This document shows, one piece after another, positions 8,134 through 64,000 of a DNA stretch of 64,000 nt (the first letter of the stretch is position 1; the number at the start of each line of letters is the position of its first letter). A program made the translations under genes and the position numbers. The notes under the pieces are model-generated. The model was not told where the DNA came from and searched no databases. It saw only the letters and a list, made by a program, of their open reading frames with translations. The stretch comes from an uncultured Candidatus Binatia bacterium (GTDB taxonomy: Bacteria; Desulfobacterota; Binatia; Bin18): positions 1,668,749 through 1,732,748 of the forward strand of contig OZ241332.1 of NCBI GenBank assembly GCA_965200125.1. Direction: 5' to 3'.

Positions 8134-9598
8134 GGGCGTCCCGTCCGGGCCACGGCGGAAGAGACGCCCGGGGCGAACGGCAACGGCCGGCCACGGTATC
8201 CCCGCCACGCCTCCCACACCAACAGCACGTAAAACGGAAGATATTCCACGCAGACGATCCAGCGGACGACTTCGGGCTGCCCACGATACAGAAAGAAGAA
8301 GCCAAGGTAGTACAGGCCCAACAGGCCGGACAAGCACAGCCACGATGCGCGTGGGAACAGACACACGAGCGGCATCACCCACACGTAATACCACGGATTG
8401 CCGACCGGGCTGAGCAGCAGCAGCGTCCCGATCACCAGAAAATATGCACGCGGCAGGGCGTCCGCGGATCCCTCTGCCCCCCTACGTAGTCCGATCAACA
8501 GCGCGGTCGCCACACCCAGGGCCGCTACGCCGTTCGCCAACCAACGTTCCGTCACGACATGCTGCACGACCGGAAACGCCAAGCTGTTGGTCAGCCATTC
8601 CTCCGCAAACGTGCCCGGCCCTTGCCACAGCGCGTCGCCCGCCGCGGCGAACGGAAGATACCCGCCCACGACGACCAGGCACGCCAGCGCCAACCCGCCT
8701 GCCGCGGACGGCGCCCCGTGTCGGCGCCACGTGTAGACCGTGCACAGCGGTACGAGAAGAACCGGAAAGAGCTTCGCCAGGGTGGCGAGCCCGAGTCCGG
8801 CGTGGGCCAGCAGGAATCGTCCATGAGACCCGCCCACACCGCCAGCATGACCAGCAGCATGGGCAGGACGTCGTAATGCGTGGAGTTGGCCGTTTCCTTG
8901 ATGACGAGCGGTGACCAAGCGTAGATCACGACCCAGCCAACCGGACGTCGGAGGCGGCGCAACAGTCCGACCAGCGCGGCCACGATCCCGAGATCCAGCA
9001 ACAGGAACTCGACCCGTAAGGCCGCCAGACTGCCCGGGGCCAGCATCGCGGCGAGGCCGAACGCAGCCTGGGCCGAGGGCGGGTACACCGTCGGCAGGTG
9101 GGGATGGTTCACGCGCGACAGGATGCGGGCGAATCCGTCATCCGCAACGGCGCGGTAGGCTTGGAGCGAACCCGTCTCGTCGGCTCCGGCATCGGCGACT
9201 TGCTGTGGACTGTAGCGGTACGGATTCAAGCCGCTCGCAACGACTTTGCCATCCCACAGGTAGCGGTAGAAATCGTCTTCCTGAATCGGCTCGGAATAGA
9301 GCAATATCCCCCGGAACAGCACCCCGAACACGACAATCGGCAACAGCGCGGTTGGCGTTGTCCGAGGTCGGGTGACACTCCACACTGCGACGCCGTACAC
9401 GGCGAACGCCGCGGCGTAGAGCGACAGATAGGCGACGATCGGCCGGTCGGCGTGACCCGTGCCGTACACGAACGCGTGGCTCAGCCACGCCATGCCGACA
9501 TAGACCGCGACCGACAGCAGGCCCGGAACGAGTACGTCAGGGAATCGACCCCACAGCGTCCGGTTGGGGGAGCAGAACACGGGACGGCGAACGGCCAT
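8130..9598 (-). pseudogene. GT-C fold integral-membrane glycosyltransferase (DUF2029/GT87-like), interrupted by a 1-nt frameshift near 8813-8818
   Basis: Two overlapping ORFs (8591..9637 and 8130..8918, frames differing by 1 nt) together encode one polytopic membrane protein of about 490 aa. The first loop carries a DD motif (EPIQEDDFYRY). The sensible translation switches frame between ...LAVWAGLMD and FLLAHAGLGLATLAKLF... There is no slippery heptamer at the switch. Confidence 0.6.
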
Positions 9599-33365: not shown

Positions 33366-35216
33366 ATGAGCGAAGCCGGAGCCGCGGCGCACGATGCGCA
33401 CGCCGAACACCACGAACTCGGATTCATCCGCACCTACGTCTTTTCGACCGACCACAAGATGATCGGCCGGCAGTTCATGCTCTCCAGCATCCTGATGCTC
33501 GTCATCGGCGGCCTGCTGGCGATGATGATCCGCTGGGAGCTGGCATGGCCGGAGACCGCGGTGCCGCTGACGAGCTGGATTCCCGAGCCGTTCATGTATC
33601 CGACCGACGACGAGACCGCCGCGGGCGCGGTGGATGCGCTGAGCGAGTTCGTCGATCCCTATCCGGGGGCCAGCTTCGCCAAATCGATCGGGCCGACCGC
33701 GGGCGCCCACATGGACCCGGCCTTCTACAACTCGGTGTTCACCATGCACGCCACGATCATGATCTTCTTCGTGGTGATGCCGTTCATGGTCGGCGGGTTC
33801 GGGAATTTCCTCATCCCGCTGATGATCGGCGCCGGCGACATGGCCTTTCCCGTGCTCAACATGCTGTCGTTCTGGACCGCGGTGCCGGCGGTCGTCATGA
33901 TCGTCTGGAGCTTCTTCGTCGAAGGCGGCGCGGCCGCGGGCGGCTGGACCATGTATGCTACCTTGTCGGCCGACCCGCTGCTCAGCGGCGTCAACGCCGG
34001 CGCCAATCTGTGGATCATCAGCCTGCTCGTGCTCGGCGTGTCCTCGCTTATGGGCTCGATCAACTACATCACGACGGTCATCAACATGCGCGCCCCGGGC
34101 ATGACGTGGTTCCGCATGCCGCTCGTCATCTGGTCGCTGTTCATCACCGCCATCCTGCTGCTGCTGGCGCTGCCGGTGCTGACCGCGGCGCTCGGTATGC
34201 TGCTGTTCGACCGCACGATGGGGACCAGCTTCTTCCTGCCGGGTGGCGGGGGCGAGCCGATTCTGTGGCAACATCTGTTCTGGTTCTTCGGCCACCCCGA
34301 GGTGTACATCCTGGTCCTGCCGGCCATGGGCGTCACGTCGGACATTCTGGCGACGTTCGCCCGCAAGCCCATCTTCGGCTACAAGGCGATGGCGTTCTCC
34401 ATGATCGCGCTGGCCTTCCTGTCCTGGATCGTCTGGGGCCACCACATGTTCGTGAGCGGCATGAACCCGGTGCTGGGAACCGCGTTCATGCTGACGACGA
34501 TGGTCATCGCGGTGCCGTCCGCGATCAAGACGTTCAACTGGCTGGGGACGCTGTGGGGCGGCAACATCCGGTTCACCAGCCCGATGCTGTTCGCGCTCGG
34601 CTTCGTGTCCAACTTCGTCATCGGCGGGCTGTCCGGCATCTACATGGCCTCCACGCCGGTGGACATCTTCATCCACGACACCTACTTCATCGTCGCCCAC
34701 TTCCACTACGTGGTGGCGGGGATCATCTTCGGCATGTTCGCCGCACTCTACTACTGGTTCCCCAAAATCTTCGGGCGGATGATCAACGAACCCCTGGCCA
34801 AGCTGCACTTCGTGTTGACCTACGTCTTCTTCAACTGCGCGTTCTTCCCCATGCACTTCCTGGGCGTCGGCGGCCACATGCGGCGCATCTACAACCCGCT
34901 GCAGTACGAGTTCCTGCACGACCTGCAATGGTGGAACGTGTTCATCACCATGAGCGCGTTCTGCCTGGGGCTGTCGCAGATCGTCTTCTTCGTCAACTTC
35001 ATCTGGAGCCTGGTCGCCGGCAAGAAGGCGGACGCGAATCCGTGGGAGGCCAATACGCTCGAATGGACGGTGCCGTCGCCGCCGGGACACGGCAACTTCG
35101 CGGCCACGCCGACGGTCTATCGCGGCCCGTACGAATACAGTTCGCCGCTGGTCACGGAAGACTGGCTCGCTCAGGACCGGAAGCTCGGACCCGAGGTCGT
35201 CAGCGCCTCGCACTAG
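33366..35216 (+). CDS. coxA: cytochrome c oxidase subunit I
   Basis: 616 aa heme-copper oxidase subunit I. Confidence 0.95.
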   Translation: MSEAGAAAHDAHAEHHELGFIRTYVFSTDHKMIGRQFMLSSILMLVIGGLLAMMIRWELAWPETAVPLTSWIPEPFMYPTDDETAAGAVDALSEFVDPYPGASFAKSIGPTAGAHMDPAFYNSVFTMHATIMIFFVVMPFMVGGFGNFLIPLMIGAGDMAFPVLNMLSFWTAVPAVVMIVWSFFVEGGAAAGGWTMYATLSADPLLSGVNAGANLWIISLLVLGVSSLMGSINYITTVINMRAPGMTWFRMPLVIWSLFITAILLLLALPVLTAALGMLLFDRTMGTSFFLPGGGGEPILWQHLFWFFGHPEVYILVLPAMGVTSDILATFARKPIFGYKAMAFSMIALAFLSWIVWGHHMFVSGMNPVLGTAFMLTTMVIAVPSAIKTFNWLGTLWGGNIRFTSPMLFALGFVSNFVIGGLSGIYMASTPVDIFIHDTYFIVAHFHYVVAGIIFGMFAALYYWFPKIFGRMINEPLAKLHFVLTYVFFNCAFFPMHFLGVGGHMRRIYNPLQYEFLHDLQWWNVFITMSAFCLGLSQIVFFVNFIWSLVAGKKADANPWEANTLEWTVPSPPGHGNFAATPTVYRGPYEYSSPLVTEDWLAQDRKLGPEVVSASH

Positions 35217-35286
35217 ACGTGCGCCGCGGCGGACGGTTCCCGCCGTCCCCGCGGCGCCGCGAACCCCCGCGCGGACGGCTGCCGGG

Positions 35287-36249
35287 ATGCAGACCGACGA
35301 CCCCATCCCCTCCGGTTCCGTTCCGGTCTGGCCCCACCGGCTGGCCGTGACGACCGCCGCGGCCACGCTGCCGCTCCTGTTTCTGGGTGGCTTGGTGACG
35401 AGTATGCAGGTGGGCATGGTCGTCCCCGACTGGCCGACCACGTTCGGCTACAACATGTTCCTGTATCCCTGGTCCAAGATGGTCGGCGGTATCTTCTACG
35501 AACACAGTCACCGGCTGCTGGGCGCCGGCGTCGGGATGCTGACGCTCGCCCTGGCCGCCACGTTGTGGGTGACGGAGTCGCGTCGCTGGCTGGCATGGCT
35601 CGGGGTCGCCGCGGTGGTCGCGGTGATCGTGCAGGGCGTATTGGGCGGGCTGCGGGTGGTGCTGATCGAACAGCGCATCGCCATCGTGCACGCCTGTCTG
35701 GCGCAGGCGTTTTTCGCCCTCGTAGCCAGCATCAGCCTGTTTACGGCCGCGGAGTGGCGGATCGAGCCTCGCCATGCCCCGCAGGCCGACGCGACGAAAC
35801 TGCGGCACTTCGGGCTGCTGAACGTGGCGCTGATCTACGCCCAACTCGTGCTGGGCGCGGTCTTTCGCCACACGGGCGCCGGGCTCGGCCTGCACATCGC
35901 GGGCGCGATGGTCGTCTTCGTGACCGTCTTTCTGCTGGTCGATCACGCACAGGAGTATGCCCGGCAGTCCGACGGCCACGCCGCGGGGGCGCGCCTGCTG
36001 CGGTCGGCCCGCACGTTGCGCGGCTTGGTGTTGCTGCAAATCGGCCTCGGACTGGCCGCCTATGTCGTGAAATATCTGACAGCGGCCGGCCCGTTGAGCG
36101 CCGCGGCCGTGCTGCTGGCGACCGGCCACGTCATCGTCGGCGCCCTGCTGCTGGTGACCAGCCTGCGCTGCACGCTGCGCGCCTATCGCTTGTCCGGACG
36201 GGCGCACCCGGTCACGGAATCGTTCGCCGCGCCCGAGGTTCGCGCATGA
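35287..36249 (+). CDS. ctaA: heme A synthase
   Basis: COX15/CtaA family, eight transmembrane helices, conserved His. Confidence 0.8.
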   Translation: MQTDDPIPSGSVPVWPHRLAVTTAAATLPLLFLGGLVTSMQVGMVVPDWPTTFGYNMFLYPWSKMVGGIFYEHSHRLLGAGVGMLTLALAATLWVTESRRWLAWLGVAAVVAVIVQGVLGGLRVVLIEQRIAIVHACLAQAFFALVASISLFTAAEWRIEPRHAPQADATKLRHFGLLNVALIYAQLVLGAVFRHTGAGLGLHIAGAMVVFVTVFLLVDHAQEYARQSDGHAAGARLLRSARTLRGLVLLQIGLGLAAYVVKYLTAAGPLSAAAVLLATGHVIVGALLLVTSLRCTLRAYRLSGRAHPVTESFAAPEVRA

Positions 36250-37208
36250 CGCCGCTCGCACAGACGCTCGGACTCGATACGTCCCGCCTCCGGCGGCGGA
36301 CCGCTGCGTTCGTCGAACTCACCAAACCGCGGCTGGTCAGCATGATCCTGCTGACGACGACCGTCGGGTTCTATCTGGGGTCGTGGCCGACCGTGGACTA
36401 CGGCCTGCTCCTGCACACGTTGCTGGGAACCGGCTTGGCCGGCGGCGGGACACTGGCGCTCAACCAGTTGATGGAGCGCCACGCCGACGCGCTGATGGAG
36501 CGCACCCGAACACGTCCACTGCCCGCGGGCCGCTTGCAGCCCGCGGACGCCCTGGTCTTCGGATCGCTGCTGACCGTGGCAGGCTTGGTGTACTTACTGC
36601 TAGTCGTCGATCCGCTGAGCGCCCTGGTCACGGCGGCGATCAGTGCGAGCTATCTCTTCGCCTACACGCCGCTCAAGCAGAAGACCACGCTGTGCAGCAT
36701 TGCCGGCGCGGTGCCGGGCGCCCTACCGCCGGTCGTCGGCTGGACCGCGGCCAGCGGGACGTTGGGCATCGAAGCGGCCATTCTGTTCACGATCATGTTT
36801 CTCTGGCAAATGCCCCATTCGCTGGCGATTGCCTGGCTGTACCGCGAGGACTACGCCCGGGCCGGCTTTCGACTGCTGCCGGTGATCGAACCGGACGGGA
36901 AAAGTACCGGCCGCCAAGTCGTGACGCATTGTCTGGCGCTGCTGGCCGTCGGCCTGCTGCCGACGCTGGTAGGAATGGCCGGCACACGGTACTTCGTCAT
37001 CGCCTTCGGGCTGGGCTGTCTGTTCCTGTGGTACGGCATGCGCTTGGCACGGACCCGCTCGCGGGAGTCCGCGCGCACCCTCATGTTCGCGTCGCTGGTG
37101 TACCTGCCGATCCTGTTGACCGCCATGGCTCTGGATAAGCTCCCCGGCAACGCTATGCACCCGACGTTCCCGGCGTCCGCCGTGCATGGAGATCACCGAT
37201 CCGGTTGA
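36246..37208 (+). CDS. ctaB: protoheme IX farnesyltransferase (heme O synthase)
   Basis: UbiA-family sequence. ATGA overlap with ctaA. Confidence 0.88.
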   Translation: MTPLAQTLGLDTSRLRRRTAAFVELTKPRLVSMILLTTTVGFYLGSWPTVDYGLLLHTLLGTGLAGGGTLALNQLMERHADALMERTRTRPLPAGRLQPADALVFGSLLTVAGLVYLLLVVDPLSALVTAAISASYLFAYTPLKQKTTLCSIAGAVPGALPPVVGWTAASGTLGIEAAILFTIMFLWQMPHSLAIAWLYREDYARAGFRLLPVIEPDGKSTGRQVVTHCLALLAVGLLPTLVGMAGTRYFVIAFGLGCLFLWYGMRLARTRSRESARTLMFASLVYLPILLTAMALDKLPGNAMHPTFPASAVHGDHRSG

Positions 37209-37425
37209 ACATCGGGGAAGCCGACTGTACGAAAGACGCCATGCCCCTCGTCAGACGGTCCGAACGCCAGGCGGAAAACCGCTCCCTCGGCCGCATCCTG
37301 GCCGTATTCATCGTCCTGTACATCCTCGCCACGGTGTGGTTCATCATCGTGGCGTAGCGCCGGGGGAATGGCCGCGGCGACAAGCAACGAGAGTTGACTC
37401 CCGGTGGCGGAAAAAGGCGGCACGA

Positions 37426-38124
37426 ATGCCCTTGCACGCAGTCGGATCGGCACAGACAGGGCGGGCGGAAGCTCTCCGACCTGCCGACTTCGAGCCGGTC
37501 CCGGCCCGCGATACCTCGGAACCCCTCGTTGCCCTACCCGGTTTCGGCGGAGGCCCACCACCCGGTTCCCCCCGACCGCCGATCAGCAACGTGCGCATGG
37601 GAATGTTGATGCTGATCGGTGCGGAGACGATGTTCTTCGCCGGCCTCATCGGCGCCTACATCGTCTTCCGCTTCGGCAGCGTGACGTGGCCGTCGGGACA
37701 CGTCTTCCTGCCCGTGGGCATCACCTGGGTGAACACCGGCGTGCTGCTGTCGAGTTGTTACACCATGTTCCGGGCGATGGGCCGCCTCAAGGCCGACCGG
37801 CAGGAGGCGTTCGTGCGCGGGCTCGCCGTCAGCGCGGCGCTGGGCACCCTCTTTCTTTGCGTGCAAGGCTACGAGTGGGTGAATCTCGTCCGCGACGGGC
37901 TGACCCTTTCGGCCGGCATGTACGGTGCCACGTTCTACACCCTGATCGGCTGCCACGGCCTCCACGTCCTGGTCGCGGTGTTGTGGCTGGGGGTCGTCGT
38001 ATTCCAGGCTCGTCGCGGAAAATTCTCGTCCGACGCCCACGCCGGCGTCGAGGCATGCAGTATGTACTGGTATTACGTCGGCGCCCTGTGGGTCGTGCTC
38101 TTCCCGCTCGTGTATCTGAACTGA
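37426..38124 (+). CDS. cytochrome c oxidase subunit III homologue (CoxO-like)
   Basis: Subunit-III-like transmembrane core (LMLIGAETMFFAGLIGAYIV...GCHGLHVLVAVLWL). The start is uncertain: an N-terminal extension exists if the ATG at 37426 is used. Confidence 0.7.
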   Translation: MPLHAVGSAQTGRAEALRPADFEPVPARDTSEPLVALPGFGGGPPPGSPRPPISNVRMGMLMLIGAETMFFAGLIGAYIVFRFGSVTWPSGHVFLPVGITWVNTGVLLSSCYTMFRAMGRLKADRQEAFVRGLAVSAALGTLFLCVQGYEWVNLVRDGLTLSAGMYGATFYTLIGCHGLHVLVAVLWLGVVVFQARRGKFSSDAHAGVEACSMYWYYVGALWVVLFPLVYLN

Positions 38125-40705: not shown

Positions 40706-41764
40706 ATGGCCATCCTCGTCACCGGAGGTGCCGGCTTCATCGGGTCGAACTTCGTTCTGGACTGGGTGCAGCAGTCCGACGAGCGTATCGTCAACCTCGA
40801 TAAACTGACCTACGCCGGCAATCTGGAAAACCTGGTCGAACTTGACGGCGACGCGCGTCACCTGTTCGTGCACGGCGACATCAGCGACCCACAACTGCTC
40901 GGAACGCTGTTCGCGGAACATCGGCCGCGCGTGGTCATCAACTTTGCGGCCGAGTCCCACGTCGATCGTTCCATCCACGGGCCGGAAGACTTCGTCACCA
41001 CGAACGTCGTCGGGACGTTTCGGTTACTGGAGGCGGCCCGCGACTATTGGAACGGTCTTCCGAAGCGTGAGCGGACGCGCTTTCGCTTCCTCCACGTTTC
41101 CACCGACGAGGTGTACGGTGCGCTCGCGCCGGACGACCCGGCGTTCACCGAAACGCACCGCTATCGGCCGAACAGTCCGTATAGCGCCAGCAAAGCTGCC
41201 GCGGATCACTTGGTGCACGCATACGTTGCCACCTACGGGCTCCCGGCGATAACGACCAACTGCTCGAACAATTACGGCCCGTACCAATTCCCGGAAAAGC
41301 TCATTCCGCTGGTCATACACAACGCCTTGGCAAGCGACCCCTTGCCCGTGTACGGCGACGGCCAACACGTGCGCGACTGGCTGTATGTACGAGACCATTG
41401 CCGTGCCCTCCGTCGGGTACTCGAGGCCGGGCGCTGTGGAGAGGTGTACAACATCGGTGGTCTGAACCAGAAAACCAATTTGGAACTCGTGTCCGACCTG
41501 TGCGACCTGCTCGACGAACTTCGCCCGAAAGCCGACGGCCGCTCGTATGCTTCTCAAATCACCTTCGTCAAAGACCGGCCGGGGCATGACCGGCGCTACG
41601 CTATCGACACCGCCAAAATAGAACGCGAACTCGCCTGGGCGCCGATCGAGACCTTTGCGAGCGGCCTACGCAAAACCGTGCAGTGGTACCTGGAACATCC
41701 CGCCTGGGTCGCCCACGTCACGAGCGGCGACTATCGCTGCTGGGTCCGCCAACATTACACATGA
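40706..41764 (+). CDS. rfbB: dTDP-glucose 4,6-dehydratase
   Basis: GGAGFIGS motif. Local GC is about 60%. Confidence 0.93.
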
Positions 41765-41771
41765 AGAACAC

Positions 41772-42680
41772 ATGAAGACGCTTCTATTCGGAGCCAATGG
41801 CCAAGTCGGCTGGGAACTGCGTCATTCCCTCACCTCTATCGGCCAAGTCAAAGCGTGCGACCGGCAAACAGTCGATCTTGAACGGCAGGACGAACTGCGA
41901 GCCGCGATTCGTGACTACCGTCCCGAGTTGATCGTCAACGCCGCGGCGTACACGGCGGTCGACAAAGCCGAAGCTGACCCGGACACGGCCAAACGGGTCA
42001 ACGCCGATGCCGTCGGACTCCTGGCGACCGAGGCGAAGCGGCTCGATGCCGTCCTGGTCCACTACTCGACCGACTACGTCTTCGACGGAACCAAAGTCGG
42101 GGCTTACGGAGAAACCGATACGCCCAATCCGCTCAACGTCTATGGTCGGACCAAGCTCGAGGGAGAGAAGGCTATTCGGGGCAGTGGATGTCGGCATTTC
42201 ATTTTTCGGACGAGCTGGGTGTACGCGCCGCGGGGTGTCAATCTCCTGCGCATCATACTTCGGATGGCCAAGGAACGGAATACGCTCCGCATCGTGGCCG
42301 ACCGGACAGGAACACCGGCCTCCGCCCGATTGGTCGCGCGTACCACGGCTCTCAGCCTGCAGAAATTCGCCCATGCCAAGAGAAGCACCGAATCTCTGCT
42401 GGGGACATATCACATAGCTCCGCCCGGCGTGACGAGTCCGTACGGGCTTGTCTGCCATCTGCTCCGGGAGGCGCAAAGGTCTGGCACCAAGCTTCGATGT
42501 CCCCCCGAAAACGTCCAGCCCATCACTGCTGCGGAATACCCACAACCAGCAAAACGGCCTGTGAATGGGAGGCTTGACACTCAAAAGCTTCGTTCGACCT
42601 TCAACGTTCGCCTACCCGCATGGCAGACTGAAATTCGCCAGACAGTCCAAGAAATCAACGGGCGGAATATGGAACGATGA
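41772..42680 (+). CDS. rfbD: dTDP-4-dehydrorhamnose reductase
   Basis: RmlD family ([10 protein letters not shown]...YSTDYVFDG). Confidence 0.9.
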
Positions 42681-43558
42681 CGCGCAGGGGTATTATTCTG
42701 GCGGGCGGATCGGGGACTCGGCTTTCCCCGATCACTCGGGCATTTTCCAAGCAATTGCTGCCCGTGTTCGACAAGCCCATGATCTATTATCCGTTGACCA
42801 CGCTGATGCTGGCCGGACTTCGAGAGATTCTGGTCATCTCCACCCCCCGCGACGCCCCGTTGTTCAAGGACATGCTGGGCGACGGGCGGCAATGGGGCAT
42901 CTCCATTCGGTACGCCGAGCAGCCTTCGCCCGACGGCCTCGCCCAAGCGTTCCTGATCGGCGTAGATTTTCTGGGCGACGCGCCGGCCGCCCTGGTCCTC
43001 GGCGACAACATTTTCTACGGCCATTCGTTTCACGAAATGCTTGCCGCGGCCCATGCCAGGGAAGATGGGGCGACGATCTTCGCCTATCACGTGCACGACC
43101 CGGAACGGTACGGTATCGTAGAGTTCGACGCGAACGGGCGGGTCCTCAGTCTCGAAGAAAAGCCCTCGCAGCCAAGATCCAGTTTTGCGGTGACCGGCCT
43201 GTATTTCTACGATCGCCACGTCGTGGAATACGCCGCGCGGCTCGAACCTTCCGCTCGCGGCGAGTTGGAAATCACGGATCTGAACCGTTGTTATCTCGAA
43301 CGCGGCACGCTCTCGGTTCAACGTCTGGGAAGGGGCTACGCCTGGCTGGATACCGGCACGCAGGAAAGTCTGCTCGAAGCCAGCCAATTCGTCCAGACCA
43401 TCGAGCACCGGCAGGGGCTGAAGATCGCCTGTCCCGAAGAGATCGCCTACCGGAAGCGATGGATCGACGCCCGGCAAATGGAAACGCTGGCCGCGATGAT
43501 GGAAAAAAGCAACTACGGACGCTACCTGCGCCGAGTCCTGCACGAGGTCGGGGCCTGA
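42677..43558 (+). CDS. rfbA: glucose-1-phosphate thymidylyltransferase
   Basis: [12 protein letters not shown] motif. ATGA overlap with rfbD. Confidence 0.93.
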
Positions 43559-44109
43559 TGAAAGCGACGCCACTGGCTATTGCGGACGTGATCCTGCTCG
43601 AACCGCGGGTTTTCGAGGACGAACGCGGCTTCTTTTTCGAGAGCTTCAATCAGCAAGCGTTCGAGCGAGCCTGCGGACACGCCCAGATTTTCGTACAGGA
43701 CAATCATTCCAGGTCGAGCCGTGGCGTGCTGCGCGGCCTGCATTACCAACTCCCGCCCAAGGCCCAGGGCAAACTCGTGCGCGTAGTGTACGGCCAAGTC
43801 TTCGACGTGGCGGTCGACATCCGCCGCGGTTCGCCCACCTATGGCAACTGGGTCGGAGAACGTCTGTCGGCCGAGAACAAGCGGCAACTCTGGATACCCG
43901 AAGGCTTTGCACACGGATTTCTCACACTTTCCGACGCAGCCGAGGTCATCTACAAGACGACCGAGTTCTATGCCCCGGAACTGGAACGCTGCATTCGCTG
44001 GGACGACCCGGTCATCGGGATCAAATGGCCTGTGACGCCCTCGGTGTCGAGCCTGTCGGCCAAAGACGCCGAAGCTACCCCTTTCGTCGATGCCGAACCA
44101 TTCACTTGA
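43558..44109 (+). CDS. rfbC: dTDP-4-dehydrorhamnose 3,5-epimerase
   Basis: RmlC cupin fold. TGATG overlap with rfbA. Confidence 0.9.
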   Translation: MKATPLAIADVILLEPRVFEDERGFFFESFNQQAFERACGHAQIFVQDNHSRSSRGVLRGLHYQLPPKAQGKLVRVVYGQVFDVAVDIRRGSPTYGNWVGERLSAENKRQLWIPEGFAHGFLTLSDAAEVIYKTTEFYAPELERCIRWDDPVIGIKWPVTPSVSSLSAKDAEATPFVDAEPFT

Positions 44110-44202: not shown

Positions 44203-44800
44203 ATGTTGCTCCGGAAAGTATTGCCTACGCTTCGTGCCCGCTTGGACGCTCATCCCGCCGTTGCACTGGTCGAGCCGCATCAAGGTGAAAACAGGAAAAA
44301 GTTTAGGACTTTCCTACCACACGGTGAACAACTACGTGGACTATCTGGAAGGGGCCTTTCTCGTCCGCCGGCGGCCTCCCTATTCCGCGAATATTCGCAA
44401 ACGGGTCATCAAACGCCCCAAGCTCTACTGCGCGATACGGGCCTTCTCCATGCCCTGTTGAGCGTACGAGACCGGACACCTTGTTGAACCAACCCTGGGT
44501 TGGGGCGAGTTGGGAGGGATTCGTCATTGAAAAGATCTTGGCGGCGTTGCACTGTACAGACCGCCCGTTCGATGCGTATTATCTGCGCACCAGCGATCAG
44601 TGAGAAATCGATTTGTCATCCAGATGGATGCAAAGTTATGGGAACTGAAGATCAAGCTCACAGCGCGCCCGAGTTTCGACGATATGGCACGACTCGACGC
44701 AACCGCGGACCTCGCCCATGCGGATCGGCGGTTCCTCGTCTTCAATTCGGTGATTTCATCGAGAGTGATCCCTGGATCATCTGCAACATCCAAAGCCTCA
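44203..44800 (+). pseudogene. degenerate 3' remnant of an AAA+ ATPase with DUF4143 domain
   Basis: DUF4143-like pieces are spread over three frames with frameshifts and a stop (YHTVNNYVDYLEGAFLVRRRPPYSANIRKRVIKRPKLY / LRDTGLLHALL / WEGFVIEKILAAL / DAKLWELKIKLT). The N-terminal ATPase domain is absent. Confidence 0.65.
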
Positions 44801-45021
44801 TAAACTTCGTTGAGCGGAGGCATTAAATTCGAAAGTCTCGCAAATACCCATCGCACAAACATTTCGGCCTACTTACTAGGGTGTCCAACAACGCCTCATA
44901 TATCTTCTGGCGGCAAATGCCGCATAGTTATATTGGTGGCGCGTGGACTGAATCTACAGATTTGCAGGAGCGGGATTTCCTGCCTACCCCCGCACAACAG
45001 AAAGTCGATCCCCGCGTCTCT

Positions 45022-48000
45022 TTAATAGTAACGCTTAAGCCATTTTGACGAATTGGTATGTTCCTTGATATAAGATGAACCTAAATGGGATACATATTTG
45101 AGGTACGATGAATTTTCTTTAACATAAAAAGGATGGGGAAACATCAATTGAAGTTCGAATTTCTTCCTATAATATTCACGATGTACGTCAGATATAATAA
45201 CTCCGTTGTCGTAACGGGAATATATCCATTCTGATTTCCATTCTTTGTAAGATCTTAAAAACCATTTCACCGTATCGTCGTATTCGGATATCAATGATTC
45301 GAGATCCTTAGTGAATCGTCCGAAAACATCAAACATAGTTCGGGGAACGCCGAGATCGTAGCCGGAGAAATGGAAGAATATGAGAGGGTCATTGCCTGAG
45401 AACCAACAATTATTCCTTCGGGATATCGGCCTGTAAGATATATTCCATGATGCAGTGTTACAGCCTTCGTGCTTCAGCACTTTGATGCCCTCGAAAAAGA
45501 TAGGGACATGATTGAACCACTTTTGATCAGTGAACAGACCGCGGGCGTGGTCGTCTTGACAGTATCTCAATAGTCTTCTGGACCAAAAATCGATCACTTC
45601 ACGTGCTTTTTTTCCTCGCTTGAATCCGACGAAGCCCAGATTGAAAACACCATGCGCCAGAGAGGATATCTCGTTGTAATGAATTTCGGCATCTCGAATC
45701 GCTTTTTGGGTACAATGAGGAGTAAGTAATACTTCGCACTCTGCCATTTCGTCCACGAGAGCCTCGAGATCGCTATAGGCGTATGTATCCGGGTCGAAGT
45801 AGAACACATATTCATATCCTCTGTCCAACAGATATTGCGAATAAAATGGCTTGGTCGCTGTGCATAATTCCACAACATTGTGCGAGAATATCCAACTGTG
45901 GAGAGAGGGTATCCCTAGGTGGGAGATCGGAAAAACGGCGTCTATGCCCGGCCAATTTGAGGCACTGTCCGGGACGAAGTCATTCAACAATATATGGGTC
46001 TCCCAGTCCGGATTATGCCTCTTGACCGACCGTGCCCAAGAAAGCGCTTTTGGCAGATAACGTAGACTAATAGAGGTGAAAGCCGCAATCTTCGACTCGA
46101 ATTTCGGTTCGGGATCCGGCCCAGGAGACGACTCGTTCCCAAGATATTTCATCAATCGTGCAGTCTTTTCGGATTCCCGCCCCTCCCCGTCTTTCCTCTT
46201 GTCCGCGAAGGGTAGATTCGCTCGCCGAAAAGCTTTTCCCATTAAGTGGCGCGCATGATCGTCAATAAGACCCATATCCGAGATGCCATAGATTTCAAGG
46301 ATCGTGTTCCGTTGAATATTTAGATATTCTTCAGCTTCGAAGTGGGATTCGAGACGCTTTTGGTTTTCTAGTCGTGGGGGCACATGAAACACACTCGTGA
46401 CTTCTCCGACCAATAGCACGCGGCATCGAATGAGCATCTGCATCCAGAACAACCAATCCTCTAGGGCGTCGAGGTTCTCGTCCAATCTATCAGACGAGAG
46501 ACGCGATGTCCGGCGGAACAGAACTGCTTGAATTGGAAAGTAATTGCAATGGAACAACTCTCCGGGAGAAGACAGGAAAGGGAAGAATATGGTGCTTGGG
46601 CCGGTTTTGCCCAGACGCATGTCCCCTTTCTCCAACAGCGCCTCTACCTCCTTACTTGCAGCATATACAGCACCGGCCTCCGGTCGCTTCAACAAACGGG
46701 CTACAAGCAACCCACAATGATTCTCCAGGAGATAATCGTCATCGTCGAGAAATCCAATGAAATCTCCATCTGCATGATCGAGTCCGAGGTTTCCGGCTGC
46801 TGAACGGCCCATCTTCTTGCCCGTCGCAACATGCTTGAAGCGGCACCTGTCATCTCCAGCATTCAGAGCAGCTATCTTATCAGACAATTCACCAACTCCG
46901 TCTTCTGCTACAATTACTTCGATAGGACGATAGCGTTGGTTCTTGATCGATTCGAGAGCGATCCGAGTTAGCGGCCACCGTCCAGCGTAGGTACGCAAGA
47001 CAATTGTCACTAGCGGGCCGGTAGAAACCGGCTCGACGTCGATCTCGCTCTTATCGACCGGCCCATCATCATCGGGGGACGAAAGCGCCGCCGCAATCAC
47101 TCGGATATAGTTTCCCTGCTCTCGAAACGAATCTAGATCCCAATGGCCATCGGGAGGAATAGGATGCTTCGTAGAAAAGTCATCATCAAGTGGAGAAACC
47201 TGCGGTTGGTCACCCAGATCGCCTTCCGTCGCCGCAAGCGGTGGAGGCTGTAACACGCGATAGGCACGTCTGGGGGCACGTGACGACACCGCCGTGAGCA
47301 GCAGTCCTTTGATCCGCAGTTTGAATGCCGGCGAAAGCGGAGCTCGATGATATATCCATCGGGCGCTCTGACGGGCATTCGCTCGCACGCGGGTGGCCGA
47401 CGAACGTATTACTTGCATCGCATCTCGAAGAGGAGACGTGACCCTCCAACTACGGGAAGCGTACAGTTCTGCGATCCACCTACCCCGTGCCGCCACCGCA
47501 TTGTTCAACTCTCCTATCTCCTCGTCCCGTGCCGCCACCGCATTGTTCAACTCTCCTATCTCCTCGTCCCGTGCCGCCACCGCATTGTTCAACTCTCCTA
47601 TCTCCTCGTCCCGTGCCGCCACCGCATTGTTCAACTCTCCTATCTCCTCGTCCCGTGCCGCCACCGCTCGTTTACTCGTAACTAAAGCTTGGCTAAAAGC
47701 TGGCGTTGCTGCATCAAAGGCTGACTTGATCCTCTCGATATTCGTTATATCCTCCCCACCTACCTTTCCGTAACACCATTGTTCCAGAATGTTGAAGCTT
47801 GATACCACCCAACGAGAAAGTCTTGGATTAGCTGCAAGCGCGGAATCGTCGGTGGCATGGTGGCGTAATCTAAAGGTAAGAAATTTGTCGATTTCCGCTT
47901 GAACATGAACCGCGTCACTGTGTGGCCACGAAATATCAAGAGCATTTCCCAGCCTGTCCACGGTTGCTTGGGGGTTAGAAAGTAGCATTTCGTATCGCAA

Positions 48001-48540
48001 ATACACGCGCTTAATAGAACGTGAATCTGTCTCAGCATCGAGAACGTGCCGCAACCAGAGAAGATATCCGATAGAAGGATCAATGCTATCGCGCACCTCT
48101 AAAGACAGAGCGACATCAAGAGGGTTCCGGATCGGCGAGACAATAAGAGGATTCGTGCCAAAAGTCCTCACTGCATCAATCCAGAAGGGAAGTAATCGAC
48201 ATATCCTCGGATCCTTCAGAACAAATAAAGGGCTGTCGCCAAATTCATTTTTTAGAATCGTTTGAGCGCGATCGCGAAAGGGGTCGGCAATGGAAGAAAC
48301 GTACCAGCGTGGATCGAAGCTCTCCCAGTCATCCCAGGCCGACCCTGCAGATTCAAGAATCTCATCATTCAAAGCTACGATTGAATCCGACTCCCAGTGT
48401 CCGGCTTCATTAGAGGGACTGGCGCCCATCAAGGTTCTCGGTAAATCACAGCCAACCAAATGCAAGACGCGGGTGACGGCCGACGTCCCGCTCCGGTGCA
48501 TCCCGACAACCAGAATGGCCACCTTTTTCTTCTGGTCCAT
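45022..48540 (-). CDS. 1172-aa multidomain glycan-synthesis protein: N-terminal sulfotransferase, coiled-coil with tandem 14-aa repeats, GT2 domain, C-terminal second GT-A-like nucleotide-sugar transferase domain
   Basis: The sulfotransferase has PAPS-binding motifs 5'-PSB (VVGMHRSGTS) and 3'-PB (RNPLDVALS). Four repeats (ARDEEIGELNNAVA) sit in a predicted coiled coil. The GT2 domain has a DDDD DxD motif. The C-terminal domain has an FDPD motif. GC falls from about 52% in the sulfotransferase part to about 40% in the GT parts. Confidence 0.8.
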   Translation of the reverse strand: MDQKKKVAILVVGMHRSGTSAVTRVLHLVGCDLPRTLMGASPSNEAGHWESDSIVALNDEILESAGSAWDDWESFDPRWYVSSIADPFRDRAQTILKNEFGDSPLFVLKDPRICRLLPFWIDAVRTFGTNPLIVSPIRNPLDVALSLEVRDSIDPSIGYLLWLRHVLDAETDSRSIKRVYLRYEMLLSNPQATVDRLGNALDISWPHSDAVHVQAEIDKFLTFRLRHHATDDSALAANPRLSRWVVSSFNILEQWCYGKVGGEDITNIERIKSAFDAATPAFSQALVTSKRAVAARDEEIGELNNAVAARDEEIGELNNAVAARDEEIGELNNAVAARDEEIGELNNAVAARGRWIAELYASRSWRVTSPLRDAMQVIRSSATRVRANARQSARWIYHRAPLSPAFKLRIKGLLLTAVSSRAPRRAYRVLQPPPLAATEGDLGDQPQVSPLDDDFSTKHPIPPDGHWDLDSFREQGNYIRVIAAALSSPDDDGPVDKSEIDVEPVSTGPLVTIVLRTYAGRWPLTRIALESIKNQRYRPIEVIVAEDGVGELSDKIAALNAGDDRCRFKHVATGKKMGRSAAGNLGLDHADGDFIGFLDDDDYLLENHCGLLVARLLKRPEAGAVYAASKEVEALLEKGDMRLGKTGPSTIFFPFLSSPGELFHCNYFPIQAVLFRRTSRLSSDRLDENLDALEDWLFWMQMLIRCRVLLVGEVTSVFHVPPRLENQKRLESHFEAEEYLNIQRNTILEIYGISDMGLIDDHARHLMGKAFRRANLPFADKRKDGEGRESEKTARLMKYLGNESSPGPDPEPKFESKIAAFTSISLRYLPKALSWARSVKRHNPDWETHILLNDFVPDSASNWPGIDAVFPISHLGIPSLHSWIFSHNVVELCTATKPFYSQYLLDRGYEYVFYFDPDTYAYSDLEALVDEMAECEVLLTPHCTQKAIRDAEIHYNEISSLAHGVFNLGFVGFKRGKKAREVIDFWSRRLLRYCQDDHARGLFTDQKWFNHVPIFFEGIKVLKHEGCNTASWNISYRPISRRNNCWFSGNDPLIFFHFSGYDLGVPRTMFDVFGRFTKDLESLISEYDDTVKWFLRSYKEWKSEWIYSRYDNGVIISDVHREYYRKKFELQLMFPHPFYVKENSSYLKYVSHLGSSYIKEHTNSSKWLKRYY
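47486..47667. repeat. perfect 42-bp tandem repeat (4.3 copies) inside the multidomain gene
   Basis: The unit cgtgccgccaccgcattgttcaactctcctatctcctcgtcc encodes the in-frame 14-aa heptad repeat ARDEEIGELNNAVA. Copies are 100% identical. Confidence 0.9.
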
Positions 48541-48543
48541 CGT

Positions 48544-49305
48544 TCAGACTCCAACGACTCGACCGTACTCCCCCGCCACATCCTCGATCGGCCCGCTGGC
48601 CCGAACCCGCCCGGCGTCAAGCAAAATCCCCTTCGTACAGATACGACCCAAGAGGTCAAGATCGTGCGAGGCCAGCACCAGTATCCCCGCACAGTCGATG
48701 AACGCATCGAGCCGGCGTTTGGCTTTCTCGACGAACGCGGCGTCTCCGACGCTGAGCCACTCGTCCATGAGCAAGATATCTGGTTTGATGCAGGTGGATA
48801 CCGCGAACGTGAGTCGCATCAACATTCCCGTCGAGTAGGTCCGGACAGGCAGGGCCAAGTATTCCCCAAGTTCGGAGAACTCGGCAATCTCTTCCGTGCG
48901 CTGCTGTATCTCCTTCGGCGTGAGTCCGAGTAGCAACCCGCACGTCACGATGTTCTCATAGCCGGTCGTTTCATGGTCCATCCCCAGGCCGACATCGATC
49001 AGCGAAGTCACCCGCCCATGTCGCCAGACCCGCCCCTGCAGCGGCTCATACACACCCGCCAGCACGCGCAGCAGCGTCGTCTTGCCCGAACCGTTGTGAC
49101 CGAGCAGACCGACGCGGTCACCGTGCTCGATCGTTAAGCTCACGTCTTCGAGTGCCCGGACGCAGAGCACGCTTTCGGCATTATTCCCGATGCGCCCACC
49201 CGTCCCCCTGTGCAACAGGCTGGTCTTCAGCGAACGTGTCCGCGCGCTGTAGATGGGAAAGTCGACCGTGACGCCTTCGAGTCGGATGGTAGCGAAGGTG
49301 CTCAT
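48544..49305 (-). CDS. wzt: ABC transporter ATP-binding protein Wzt/TagH-like (NBD only, no C-terminal carbohydrate-binding module)
   Basis: 253 aa from MSTFATIRLEG. Walker A GHNGSGKTT. ATGA overlap with wzm. Confidence 0.85.
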   Translation of the reverse strand: MSTFATIRLEGVTVDFPIYSARTRSLKTSLLHRGTGGRIGNNAESVLCVRALEDVSLTIEHGDRVGLLGHNGSGKTTLLRVLAGVYEPLQGRVWRHGRVTSLIDVGLGMDHETTGYENIVTCGLLLGLTPKEIQQRTEEIAEFSELGEYLALPVRTYSTGMLMRLTFAVSTCIKPDILLMDEWLSVGDAAFVEKAKRRLDAFIDCAGILVLASHDLDLLGRICTKGILLDAGRVRASGPIEDVAGEYGRVVGV

Positions 49306-50078
49306 ACCCAATAGGCGAGACGTCCACGACGGCCGGTGTAGAAGATCAACATCACAATCCATCCCCCCAGCGTGACGCCGAGTGTCGCGAGCCACGTGGT
49401 CACCTCCGGCACCTGTCCGAGTAACGGCGCGCGCACCACCTCCAAAAGATAGAAGAATGGGTTCATGTCCAACACGAGCGCCCGATCGGGCAGAAGCTCG
49501 GGTTTCCATAATACCGGCGTGAGAAAAAAAGCGACCTGCACGGCGCTGGCAACCACCTGCGGCACGTCGCGGAAACGGGCAGACAGGAGACCGAGCAAGA
49601 GCCCTATCCATACGCCGTTCAGACAGAGGATCGCCAAGCCCGGAACCGTGAGCAGTCCGGCCCAACCCGGACGGACCGAAAAGAGGACGGCTACGACGAT
49701 GAAGATGACGACGTTATGGGCGAAGATGACGAAGTTGCGCCACACGGCTCGGTACACGTGAACGGATAGAGGCAGCCTGACTTGTTTGATGATGCTCTCC
49801 GCCTCAATGAAGGCCGTACAGCCGTCGGTGATCAAACCGGAGATCAAACCCCACACGACGAATCCGGCGGCAATGAATGGCAGATAATTTGCAATCTCGA
49901 CCTTGAACAAAGCTGAATACAACACTCCCAACGCACCGACCAGCACGCCCATACTGATCGTGAGCCAGAATGGTCCGAGTTTCGAACGGCGATACCGTTG
50001 GCGGATGTCCTGCCAGCCCAGCCGCCCCCAGAGATACGGTGAGCACGCGCCTTGGATGATGTCCGATAAGGCGGTCAT
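49302..50078 (-). CDS. wzm: ABC-2 type polysaccharide export permease Wzm/KpsM-like
   Basis: 258 aa from MTALSDIIQG. Six transmembrane helices of ABC-2 topology. Confidence 0.8.
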   Translation of the reverse strand: MTALSDIIQGACSPYLWGRLGWQDIRQRYRRSKLGPFWLTISMGVLVGALGVLYSALFKVEIANYLPFIAAGFVVWGLISGLITDGCTAFIEAESIIKQVRLPLSVHVYRAVWRNFVIFAHNVVIFIVVAVLFSVRPGWAGLLTVPGLAILCLNGVWIGLLLGLLSARFRDVPQVVASAVQVAFFLTPVLWKPELLPDRALVLDMNPFFYLLEVVRAPLLGQVPEVTTWLATLGVTLGGWIVMLIFYTGRRGRLAYWV

Positions 50079-50208
50079 TCGTATGCTGAATCCAGGGGGC
50101 GAGGAGAAGCGAGCGTGCTGTTCAACGTCATATCGTGCCGGGGCCGGACGTGTCCGAACCCTGCGGAACCGGATTTTCACTGGCAAGTGCCATACGGCCC
50201 CGACGCTG

Positions 50209-50649
50209 TCATCTCGAAGCGAACGGGTCACGGGTACGGAGTTCTGGAAACAGGGAGAAGTCACGGTCGCGCGTCAGCAACGCCTCCGCACCGTGCGCGA
50301 CACAGACTGCCGCAACCCGGGCATCGTGTACGACGCCTCCGATGACCCGCAGACGCTGGACGAACCCGCTCAGGATGTCGAGGAAGTCGTCGACCTCGCC
50401 CATCAGACGGTTCGACGGCGACACAGCCCAGGCGTGGAGTTGTCTCCATGCGCGTTCCGGCGTCGTTGCAGCGTCTTTCCAGATCCGGCGGTTCGTCACG
50501 ACGATCAGGAACTCGTAACAGCACGGCCACGGAATCGCCCAGGCGTGGGTGCCTTCGGCGAGTTCGCGCACGACCGCCGCGGCGGTCTCGTGCATGCTCG
50601 ACTCCCGGCGGTATGCATAGACGAGGAGGTTGGTATCGACCGCAATCAT
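50209..50649 (-). CDS. vapC: PIN-domain toxin VapC
   Basis: The sequence MIAVDTNLLVYA supplies the conserved Asp. PIN fold. ATGA overlap with the upstream antitoxin gene. Confidence 0.8.
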   Translation of the reverse strand: MIAVDTNLLVYAYRRESSMHETAAAVVRELAEGTHAWAIPWPCCYEFLIVVTNRRIWKDAATTPERAWRQLHAWAVSPSNRLMGEVDDFLDILSGFVQRLRVIGGVVHDARVAAVCVAHGAEALLTRDRDFSLFPELRTRDPFASR

Positions 50650-50894
50650 CTCGCTTCCGGCGGGCCGTAGATGATTTCTCGCAAGTCCTGCCAAGTATAT
50701 GCTTCGAGTGGGTCGTGTTTTCCCGCCCTTCCCGCGCTCCAGTCCGGCAACCGATATTTCGGGCTCGCAGGTGCGGGGGCAAGCACGAGGCGGAGTCCGT
50801 CTTCGACGACCGCGCCGAGTGGACGGCCCGTTTTTCGGGCGTGACGCTTTGCCCGCACAAGCAGGGCCTCATGGGTATCCAAGGTCGTCTTCAT
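50646..50894 (-). CDS. vapB: VapB-type antitoxin
   Basis: About 82 aa (MKTTLDTHEALLVRAKRHARKTG...), upstream of and overlapping vapC. Confidence 0.7.
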   Translation of the reverse strand: MKTTLDTHEALLVRAKRHARKTGRPLGAVVEDGLRLVLAPAPASPKYRLPDWSAGRAGKHDPLEAYTWQDLREIIYGPPEAR

Positions 50895-51073
50895 GTGTGC
50901 CAGCCTACCCATATCGAGCAATATGGCAAGACCAGGAAATTCGAGGTTGCAGGTTCGCCGCACGGGTCGAAAAACGCTCGTGCCGGCGGTTTGTACTTCC
51001 GCGGCGTTTGCGCTACAGGCGGAAGAAATCCCACCCCGCGCGAACGCAGGCAACCCAAAAGGAGGGACGCGCC

Positions 51074-63553: not shown

Positions 63554-64000
63554 TTATTGGCCAATAGGTGCCCCCGCGTTTTCGTCCCGATAGCGAGACG
63601 GGCACGAGTCCACGGGAGGCTCCGCCACGGCGAGTTGCCGCCGGGTCAAGCCGTGTGTCTGCGACAGATCCACGCCCGTAAGATTCGCTCCCGCCAAGTC
63701 CGCCTCGGACACGTCCGCGCGATGTAACGCGCTGCCGGACAGATTGGCGCCGCGCAGGACAGTATAGCGCAGGTCGGCGCCCGTCAGGTCGGCCCCGCGC
63801 AGGTCCATCCCCTCCAGGTCCGCGCCGGCCAGCCCGGCGTCGCGCAGGTCAGCGCCGGCCAGACTCACGACCTTGCCGCGGTCGTTCAGAAGGTCCCACA
63901 CCAGCCGCCACTTGGCGTCCAGTTTGGTGTCCTCGTCGATCCGAGCGCCGGACAACTCGGCGCCCGCCAGCACGGCGTCGGTCAGGTCCGCACCTGAGAG
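63554..64000 (-). CDS. pentapeptide-repeat protein (5' end beyond window)
   Basis: Tandem A(D/N)L(x)x pentapeptides (ADLRDAGLAGADLEGMDLRGADLTGADL). Confidence 0.7.
   Translation of the reverse strand, partial: LSGADLTDAVLAGAELSGARIDEDTKLDAKWRLVWDLLNDRGKVVSLAGADLRDAGLAGADLEGMDLRGADLTGADLRYTVLRGANLSGSALHRADVSEADLAGANLTGVDLSQTHGLTRRQLAVAEPPVDSCPSRYRDENAGAPIGQ

Follow-up and report, generated by a model that had tools for sequence, protein, structure and literature searches.

A 42-bp in-frame tandem array in the predicted coiled-coil spacer of a putative sulfotransferase–glycosyltransferase protein, and its candidate role as a ruler of polysaccharide length

Gene neighbourhood and protein architecture

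The window (the whole 64-kb stretch of DNA that we analysed) contains a long open reading frame on the minus strand, 45022..48540, that encodes a protein of 1172 amino acids. Immediately upstream of it, also on the minus strand, are wzm and wzt, and only 3 bp separate its ATG from the wzt stop codon. The wzt gene (48544..49305, minus strand; PF00005 and NCBIfam NF050108) encodes an ABC-transporter ATPase of 253 residues, counted from MSTFATIRLEG; positions 2–240 of the 244 in NF050108 align to residues 128–367 of the 373-residue open reading frame. The ABC-2 permease gene wzm (PF01061, NF050109) spans 49302..50264 on the minus strand as a maximal open reading frame, though translation probably begins near 50078, and its orthologue in the related contig L087 is called at 258 residues. 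Adjacent to the gene for the 1172-residue protein, and convergent with it, are rmlB, rmlD, rmlA and rmlC, the dTDP-L-rhamnose precursor genes (40706..44109, plus strand, assigned by Pfam).

The wzm-wzt pair is kept immediately upstream of the gene in the relatives L001, L002 and L084–L087, and the Wzt is short in these too. The Wzt encoded in the window ends with its ABC domain: Pfam and NCBIfam searches, together with a tblastn extension analysis, found no Wzt_C carbohydrate-binding module (CBM) on it. Distant sulfotransferase–coiled-coil relatives adjoin a Wzt that does carry this module (PF14524, E 1e-22 to 1e-31, in the six distant family members L038, L041, L044, L062, L068 and L074, the last from Dyella jejuensis), and this module is the hallmark of capped-glycan systems.

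From its N terminus, the 1172-residue protein runs through a PAPS-sulfotransferase fold, a coiled coil, a basic and putatively membrane-binding segment, a GT2 module and a GT8-like module, all encoded on the minus strand. The first domain (residues 1–261, 47758..48540) is a putative chain terminator. Its Pfam match, Sulfotransfer_3, scores 27.7 bits, barely above the cut-off of 27. The AlphaFold2 (AF2) model has a mean pLDDT of 90, and in a Foldseek search of the PDB all the matches listed above rank 42 are sulfotransferases, with a probability of 1.0 for CurM-ST, TPST, 3-OST and Stf0. The motifs GxHRSGTS and RNPxDxxxS are family-invariant, with GxHRSGTS and R138-x7-S146 unchanged across 35 sequences. 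As modelled, then, residues 1–261 combine the fold of a PAPS-dependent sulfotransferase with the motifs expected to bind the 5'-phosphosulfate and the 3'-phosphate.

Residues 262–361 (47458..47757) are predicted to form one continuous α-helix, which we take to be a coiled-coil spacer. The helix is 100 residues or ∼15 nm long, and 61 of these residues derive from the tandem array described below. An AF2 model of residues 230–480 places it at model residues 33–132, with pLDDT 86–98 across the array. Of its 24 strongly hydrophobic residues, 20 fall in two heptad positions three apart, the a/d pattern is constant, and the spacer has a Pfam coiled-coil match (PF16808).

The helix is followed by a conserved SWRxTxPLR motif and two basic helices (residues 362–420, 47281..47457), a putative membrane-association segment. 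The helices appear in the AF2 model; residues 362–425 include 15 K/R against a single D/E, and the alignment has invariant columns for S (twice), W, T, P and R. By analogy with the C terminus of WbdD (PMC11231755), this basic stretch at the foot of the spacer is a putative membrane anchor. A proline-rich linker modelled at low confidence (residues 421 to ∼505, 47026..47280; pLDDT <50 at model residues 193–230) leads to the GT2 glycosyltransferase module (residues ∼506–730, 46351..47025; PF00535, E=2.3e-16, and PF10111), whose sequence matches in the PDB include PglI (9jma) and GalT1. The GT8-like glycosyltransferase module forms the C terminus (residues 790–1172, 45022..46173 with the stop codon). 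It has 587 homologues, mostly stand-alone proteins of ∼400 residues, several of which contain PF01501 or are annotated as glycosyl transferase or nucleotide-diphospho-sugar transferase.

The array and its turnover

Tandem Repeats Finder confirms a perfect 42-bp tandem array at 47484..47667 on the minus strand (score 368), with 4.4 copies that match at 100% and contain no indels. No other strong tandem array occurs in the window. The original prediction had placed 4.3 copies at 47486–47667; the array itself stands, the predicted left end was 2 bp off, and both differences are trivial. Shifted by 42 bp, the array is identical to itself over 142 bp, which cannot arise by chance.

The array lies in frame within the 1172-residue open reading frame and encodes (AARDEEIGELNNAV)x4 + AAR, approximately residues 292–352. 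Each unit comprises the heptads DEEIGEL and NNAVAAR, with I and L at a and d of the one and V and R at a and d of the other. The repeat finder, the sequence and the frame all bear out the earlier description of a perfect in-frame repeat whose unit encodes 14 residues and keeps the heptad register. The estimate of two heptads, or about 2 nm, per unit was also correct: 14 residues of helix measure ∼2.1 nm. Open reading frames on the plus strand across the array (47347–47773) were rejected as artefacts generated by the repeat. On/off phase variation was rejected as well, because a unit length that is a multiple of 3 makes it impossible.

Two close orthologues record how the array evolves. Gene-wide DNA identity to the window is 91.4% for L001 and 95.2% for L087, and their units differ from the window's unit at 4 and 2 of 42 bases, respectively; within each array, the copies are identical. 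Units that are internally identical yet distinct between lineages indicate concerted evolution, as judged from these sequences. The differences are mostly synonymous and are nevertheless fixed in every copy of all three orthologous arrays. This pattern shows turnover at the DNA level, and we therefore rejected protein-level selection alone as the source of the homogeneity. L001 and L087 are metagenome scaffolds and each has a 100-N gap inside its array, which implies that short-read assemblers are unable to resolve it.

Copy number across the family

Relatives on genome contigs were found with the N-terminal-domain alignment as the query; a query with the full protein recovered none. In metagenome contigs, a degenerate exact search gave no match to the 42-bp unit, and a protein scan gave two relatives only (44–45% identity), both without arrays.

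Among 89 protein repeats in the family, 88 have a period of 7n residues, with 2–20 copies and a start near residue 292. At the DNA level, the arrays of L002, L084, L085 and L086 are 98–99% homogeneous. Copy number varies even between near-identical alleles: in homologous arrays from lineages other than that of the window, it differs in seven of nine comparisons of repeat-bearing alleles that are at least 99% identical. P0099, P0097 and P0286 (at least 99% identical) have 7.3, 13.3 and 16.3 copies; P0275 and P0279 (99.5%) have 7 and 8; and members of the P0038 cluster (at least 99.3%) differ in length by 42, 70 and 84 residues. The P0046 cluster, at 90% identity, spans 6–13 copies. Copy number is equal in P0061/P0282 and in P0082/P0332 (99.9% each). 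A search of related genomes for copy-number heterogeneity had been proposed with the original prediction, and many relatives, including alleles that are at least 99% identical, do vary in copy number at the homologous site.

All coiled-coil indels in pairs of 85–99.7% identity are multiples of 7 residues. This is partly a mechanical consequence of the unit length and is on its own no proof of selection. Spacer length across the family extends from 53 residues, with none shorter, to 571, and 42 of 49 proteins fall into only two classes of spacer length modulo 7. Independent arrays that all have periods of 7n residues, and an anchor-to-anchor distance that takes one of two phases, indicate a rigid, register-sensitive rod. 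Proteins P0003–P0009, L082 and L083 have the same GT2 and GT8-like C terminus (40–48% identity) and non-repetitive coiled coils; the repeat is therefore dispensable for function, which tells against the ruler explanation proposed below.

A ruler for chain length and its alternatives

We propose, with a probability of roughly 0.6, that the array is the portion that sets the length of a coiled-coil spacer, within a terminator–ruler–polymerase made as one polypeptide, which would serve an ABC-transporter-dependent and probably rhamnose-containing polysaccharide pathway. The repeat is probably an evolvable dial for sugar-chain length. We infer the ruler and terminator functions from architecture, by analogy with the systems compared below; an oligomeric coiled coil, the capping activity, an effect on phenotype and the mutation rate are likewise inferred.

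In the proposed mechanism, the basic segment after the helix would hold the GT2 and GT8-like modules at the membrane, where they would extend a lipid-linked glycan, while a parallel coiled coil would keep the N-terminal PAPS-sulfotransferase ∼15 nm away. Once the growing non-reducing end reached the sulfotransferase it would be sulfated, elongation would stop and Wzm-Wzt would export the chain, so that modal chain length should scale with helix length. Unequal recombination or replication slippage in the 42-bp minisatellite would add or remove 14 residues with frame and heptad phase intact, giving rise to rapid, lineage-specific changes in ruler length across the family.

This design has much in common with WbdD of E. 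coli O9a and Klebsiella O3 and O5. Both have an N-terminal terminating enzyme (putative here), an extended coiled coil, a membrane-associated region (predicted here) and wzm-wzt. WbdD is a methyltransferase or kinase terminator that its coiled coil keeps away from the membrane, and inserting or deleting segments of this coiled coil by engineering alters modal O-antigen length (PMC5082667, PMC11231755); a membrane-associated amphipathic region follows the coiled coil (PMC11231755). Stand-alone sulfotransferase–coiled-coil relatives of 353–511 residues have a WbdD-like format. Unlike WbdD, the protein encoded in the window has a sulfotransferase fold, its polymerase is fused rather than recruited, the local Wzt lacks a CBM, and a homogeneous DNA minisatellite encodes the ruler.

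WbbB (Klebsiella O12 and Raoultella terrigena) and ORF6 of Klebsiella O7 share the module order in one polypeptide, with a distal N-terminal terminator and two glycosyltransferase modules after the coiled coil. The Klebsiella O7 locus also includes rml genes and wzm-wzt (PMC11231755). The terminator of WbbB and ORF6 is a GT99 β-Kdo transferase or a methyltransferase-kinase, whereas here it is a putative sulfotransferase; the glycosyltransferase families differ as well (GT2 and GT8-like here), and a Wzt CBM is present there. We found no report, in the searchable literature, of tandem-repeat rulers or a natural copy-number series for either protein.

A phmmer search of all PDB chains (E≤0.01) gave only GT2-type matches and no sequence similarity to the solved WbdD or WbbB chains, so the likeness is architectural and not one of homology. 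What the locus shares with the WbdD/WbbB type is the Wzm-Wzt setting and a predicted extended coiled coil between a distal catalytic domain and the membrane or polymerase end; what it lacks is that sequence homology and a Wzt_C on its Wzt. The latter counts against a capped-ruler model, as a CBM gates export in all characterized terminated systems (PMC11231755), and the window's Wzt has no such cap-recognizing module.

Three other explanations have to be weighed against a ruler that is retuned between lineages. That the array is an assembly artefact, either a chimera or a copy number collapsed or inflated by the assembler, is very improbable. The 100-N gaps at which both close short-read orthologues break would fit it, but three assemblies of the lineage, independent of one another, each have this type of array at one and the same position, and it also occurs in chromosome-scale contigs of relatives (5.38 Mb for L002; a 1.16-Mb contig for L085). 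Moreover, the contig that encodes the window protein measures 4.13 Mb, a size that points to a long-read or finished assembly, and the reading frame is intact. We also consider it unlikely that the array is a contingency locus in the strict sense, mutating at ∼1e-5 to 1e-3 per generation so that clonal cells bear different ruler and glycan lengths as a form of bet-hedging. The perfect identity of the copies, the turnover of arrays since lineages 5–9% diverged and the differences in seven of the nine comparisons, all of them in frame, agree with such a locus. However, with a 42-bp unit in 4.4 copies, no more than ∼142 bp of homology is available for misalignment, and an array of this kind is far less mutable than classical tracts of 1–8-bp units. 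The two 99.9%-identical pairs keep equal copy number, and the differences observed are between samples rather than within one.

Slightly less probable again is a neutral minisatellite in a tolerant spacer, where the coiled coil only oligomerizes the protein or separates its domains, length has no phenotype and copy number drifts. Weak constraint on length would be expected to produce the ten-fold range of spacer lengths and the variation among near-identical alleles, and the coiled coils of related proteins function without a repeat. The CBM-less Wzt recalls the Klebsiella O2a type, in which transporter:polymerase stoichiometry determines length (PMC11231755). Against neutrality, a change in coiled-coil length shifts modal chain length in two experimentally tested systems (PMC5082667, PMC11231755), and the independent arrays keep to periods of 7n residues and to one of two anchor-to-anchor phases, with a minimum spacer of 53 residues. 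The ruler-and-contingency interpretation in the original prediction is, overall, partly supported; we favour the ruler, with lineage-specific changes in length.

Other systems that measure or display length offer a parallel to this favoured ruler. Streptococcal M protein, the Yersinia type III secretion needle ruler YscP and phage tape-measure proteins are size-variable coiled-coil or ruler proteins made of in-frame tandem repeats. As there, gain or loss of an in-frame repeat would alter the length of an elongated protein and, as a result, the dimension being measured or the structure on display; those proteins act at the surface, in secretion or in the virion, whereas here the repeat would lie in the spacer of a cytoplasmic enzyme that putatively sets polysaccharide length. 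Classical contingency loci are simple-sequence repeats with 1–8-bp units in phase-variable genes, where they give heritable, reversible variation. The window has a similarly homogeneous repeat tract within a surface-structure gene, but its unit is 42 bp and the frame is never shifted, so that the outcome would be graded in length rather than on or off.

Our broader and more tentative suggestion, which we regard as doubtful, is that the family is an undescribed and widespread class of glycan terminator-polymerase. It would have sulfate caps, one subfamily without CBM-gated export, and a minisatellite ruler retuned in 2-nm steps: contingency variation that is graded and never off, exerted through the spacer of a cytoplasmic enzyme. 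The full-text literature open to our searches yielded no sulfate-capped glycan made by such a route, which counts against the capped-ruler model, and nothing relevant that links a sulfotransferase with a terminator, a coiled coil or Wzt. The family suggests that sulfation may be a new chain-terminating chemistry and that some systems with a terminator dispense with the Wzt CBM checkpoint.

In short-read assemblies these genes are broken or given the wrong size exactly at the array, so that variation relevant to chain length would be invisible in most metagenome-assembled genomes. In engineered WbdD and WbbB, coiled-coil length sets O-antigen length, and natural use of this dependence by bacteria has so far not been clear. 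The family provides a natural allelic series (6–13 copies; 7, 13 and 16 copies; a single-unit step at 99.5% identity) in which the rest of the protein is nearly constant, which makes the ruler model directly testable, together with its importance in ecology (resistance to phage, predation, complement or desiccation).

The array and the protein that carries it

The array is real. It occupies window 47484–47667 with a period of 42 bp, 4.4 copies, 100% matches and no indels, and is the sole strong tandem repeat across the 64-kb window. The original prediction had described a perfect array in frame with a coiled coil, and this description is borne out, with one end 2 bp off. The array lies in frame within a 1172-aa ORF on the minus strand (45022–48540), and encodes AARDEEIGELNNAV four times followed by AAR. 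Near the window end (63767–63859) there is also an imperfect 15-bp GC-rich tandem repeat (5.9 copies, 64% matches).

We assigned the domain order of the 1172-aa protein from Pfam, NCBIfam and PDB sequence searches together with two AlphaFold models. Residues 1–261 have a sulfotransferase fold. In Pfam they score barely over the cut-off for Sulfotransfer_3; the AF2 model of the domain has a mean pLDDT of 90, and among the matches listed in a Foldseek search of the PDB, all those above rank 42 are PAPS-dependent sulfotransferases, including CurM-ST, TPST, heparan 3-OST and Stf0. Moreover, the motifs GxHRSGTS and RNPxDxxxS show no variation among 35 homologues.

Residues 262–361 are predicted by AF2 to form a single continuous helix of 100 residues (pLDDT 86–98 over the array). 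Along its entire length, 20 of the 24 strong hydrophobics fall in two positions three apart, indicating a constant heptad register. Within the unit this register reads DEEIGEL/NNAVAAR, with I and V at the a positions and L and R at the d positions. Two very basic helices follow (residues 362–420; 15 K/R vs 1 D/E), then a linker disordered in the AF2 model, a GT2 module (Pfam and PDB sequence searches) and a GT8-like module (residues 790–1172), a member of a large family of GT8-like glycosyltransferases that occur as stand-alone proteins. The basic segment opens with SWRxTxPLR (window 47434–47457, residues 362–369), directly C-terminal to the coiled coil. Its S, S, W, T, P and R columns are invariant in A2, an alignment of family members, and it is retained in relatives as remote as Dyella (L074) and L041. 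The motif may cap the helix or serve as a hinge on the membrane side of the putative ruler.

Likeness to capped-glycan systems

In ABC-transporter-dependent O-antigen assembly, an extended coiled coil serving as molecular ruler carries the terminator at its distal tip. The polymerase is recruited in WbdD/WbdA and fused in WbbB and Klebsiella O7 ORF6, and for WbdD and WbbB modal chain length is set by coiled-coil length (PMC11231755, PMC5082667). The layout of the window protein is that of these systems. However, its distal domain has a sulfotransferase fold, unlike WbdD and WbbB, and a PDB sequence search detected no similarity to the solved chains of either. We give a probability of about 0.6 to the reading that the array forms the variable segment of a coiled-coil ruler, re-tuned in length by repeats, within a fusion of sulfotransferase terminator and polymerase. 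Gain or loss of units would adjust the ruler in 14-aa (about 2.1 nm) steps over short evolutionary timescales. Sulfate capping and the ruler function are both proposed from architecture and from literature on non-homologous analogues.

The Wzt of the window has no C-terminal carbohydrate-binding module (CBM), whereas this module is found in all terminated examples according to a 2024 paper (PMC11231755). The objection is softened by six distant family loci (L038, L041, L044, L062, L068 and L074, Dyella jejuensis among them), in which the adjacent Wzt carries Wzt_C (PF14524, E 1e-22 to 1e-31). These neighbours tie the sulfotransferase-coiled-coil family to capped-glycan systems, the subfamily of the window being a CBM-less variant. 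Some of the Wzt_C-adjoining relatives are stand-alone and WbdD-like (353–511 aa); others are GT-fused. The sulfotransferase-coiled-coil module is widespread, with at least 515 loci in many phyla (bacterial set, one genome per species). The ruler principle itself is already known. In the part of the literature that could be searched, we found no published account of a minisatellite-encoded ruler with a natural allelic series, of a sulfotransferase as putative terminator, or of a CBM-less terminator-bearing system.

Copy number and coiled-coil length in relatives

Tandem repeats starting near residue 292 are present in 89 of the 120 best homologues, in 2 to 20 copies and with a common motif AERDGxIExL; in 88 of the 89 the period is 7n aa (7 to 70). 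In this consensus and in the window array, each second core d position is Arg followed by Asp (the ERD motif), a layer conserved across arrays that expanded independently. Polar core layers recurring at regular intervals in this way may determine the oligomer state or the register.

At the DNA level, four arrays are 98–99% homogeneous: L002 (42 bp × 11.2), L086 (42 bp × 8.2), L084 (63 bp × 13.8, L084 7048–7914) and its sister allele L085 (63 bp × 7.8). The L084 sub-variants come in blocks, GGGTGG in the first five copies and GGTTGG later, and a GAACGC variant recurs at four-unit spacing; L085 has the GGTTGG type only. This pattern records duplications of multi-unit blocks.

The closest orthologues, on metagenome scaffolds, share 91.4% (L001) and 95.2% (L087) gene identity with the window. 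Their units differ from the window unit at 4/42 and 2/42 bases, close to gene-wide divergence and mainly synonymous (ATA/ATC, GGA/GGG, TTG/CTC, GAG/GAA), and all visible copies inside each array are identical. Since the differences are common to every visible copy, homogenisation or re-expansion at the DNA level has followed the lineage split; the three arrays evolve in concert.

In keeping with the gain and loss of units foreseen in the original prediction, near-identical alleles differ in copy number at the homologous site in relatives outside the window lineage. Proteins P0099, P0097 and P0286 (≥99% identical) have 7.3, 13.3 and 16.3 copies, and P0275 and P0279 (99.5% identical) have 7 vs 8. 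Lengths in the P0038 cluster (≥99.3% identical) are apart by 42, 70 and 84 aa, and the P0046 cluster has 6, 7, 7, 7, 8, 9, 11, 11, 12 and 13 copies. Strict contingency behaviour, in which copy number would often switch back and forth among the cells of a clone, is a less probable reading; copy number is unchanged in the near-identical pairs P0061/P0282 and P0082/P0332. That the array is an artefact of assembly is very improbable. Runs of about 100 N fall exactly inside the arrays of the short-read scaffolds (L001 2634–2731, L087 4835–4933), and gene callers split the proteins there, leaving fragments of 838 aa (P0001) and 798 aa (P0242). Short-read MAGs systematically fragment genes of this type.

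A neutral, tolerant spacer is a possible but less likely reading. The internal coiled-coil indels found are all multiples of 7 aa, the rest of the proteins being nearly indel-free; this is a mechanical result once a 14-aa unit exists. The spacing between FDAATPAF, which closes the sulfotransferase domain, and the SWR motif varies from 53 to 571 aa (81 aa in the window protein, toward the short end). Taken modulo 7, this spacing gives 4 or 0 for 42 of the 49 proteins, each value following one subfamily. Wide-ranging length with fixed phase is what is expected of a rod that is rigid and sensitive to register but free to vary in length. Relatives at 40–48% identity, whose C-terminus is likewise GT2 plus GT8-like, have non-repetitive coiled coils. 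More distant loci have weaker arrays, and in a few of them the period departs from 7n aa (for example 33/66, 96, 120 and 135 bp). Those of a Bradyrhizobium MAG (33/66 bp, 11/22 aa, hendecad-like; L025 6961–7217) and a Roseiarcus MAG (135 bp, 45 aa; L028 6968–7512) are examples, and may reflect another supercoil geometry or non-canonical repeats.

Genomic setting

The gene order is wzm, wzt, synthase, with 3 bp between the wzt stop and the synthase ATG; rmlB, rmlD, rmlA and rmlC lie convergent on the other side. Across the synthase gene (44500–48500) G+C is 43–55% vs 60–68% in the flanks, and about 60% in the adjoining rml, wzt and wzm genes. Such composition suggests horizontal acquisition, and that all or part of the multidomain gene may have been acquired or swapped apart from its neighbours.

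A scan of the flanking ORFs (about 30.5–52.2 kb) revealed no PF00953-type initiating glycosyltransferase; the L084 and L085 loci have one. Just upstream of rml are cytochrome c oxidase genes (33366–38124) encoding COX1, a UbiA-type prenyltransferase (likely heme O synthase) and COX3, which makes the glycan locus a compact ~10-kb island among housekeeping genes. Between rmlC and the synthase gene, a plus-strand 75-aa ORF (44234–44461) matches DUF4143 over positions 35–82 only (E=2.9e-10). This ORF resembles a decayed ATPase gene, and at the equivalent position L087 has AAA_14 and DUF4143 genes that are intact (7591–8741). Just past wzm, a minus-strand PIN-domain (VapC-like) ORF with a small overlapping upstream ORF (50209–51053) is a probable toxin-antitoxin pair beside the glycan locus, and the PIN gene is also found in L087.
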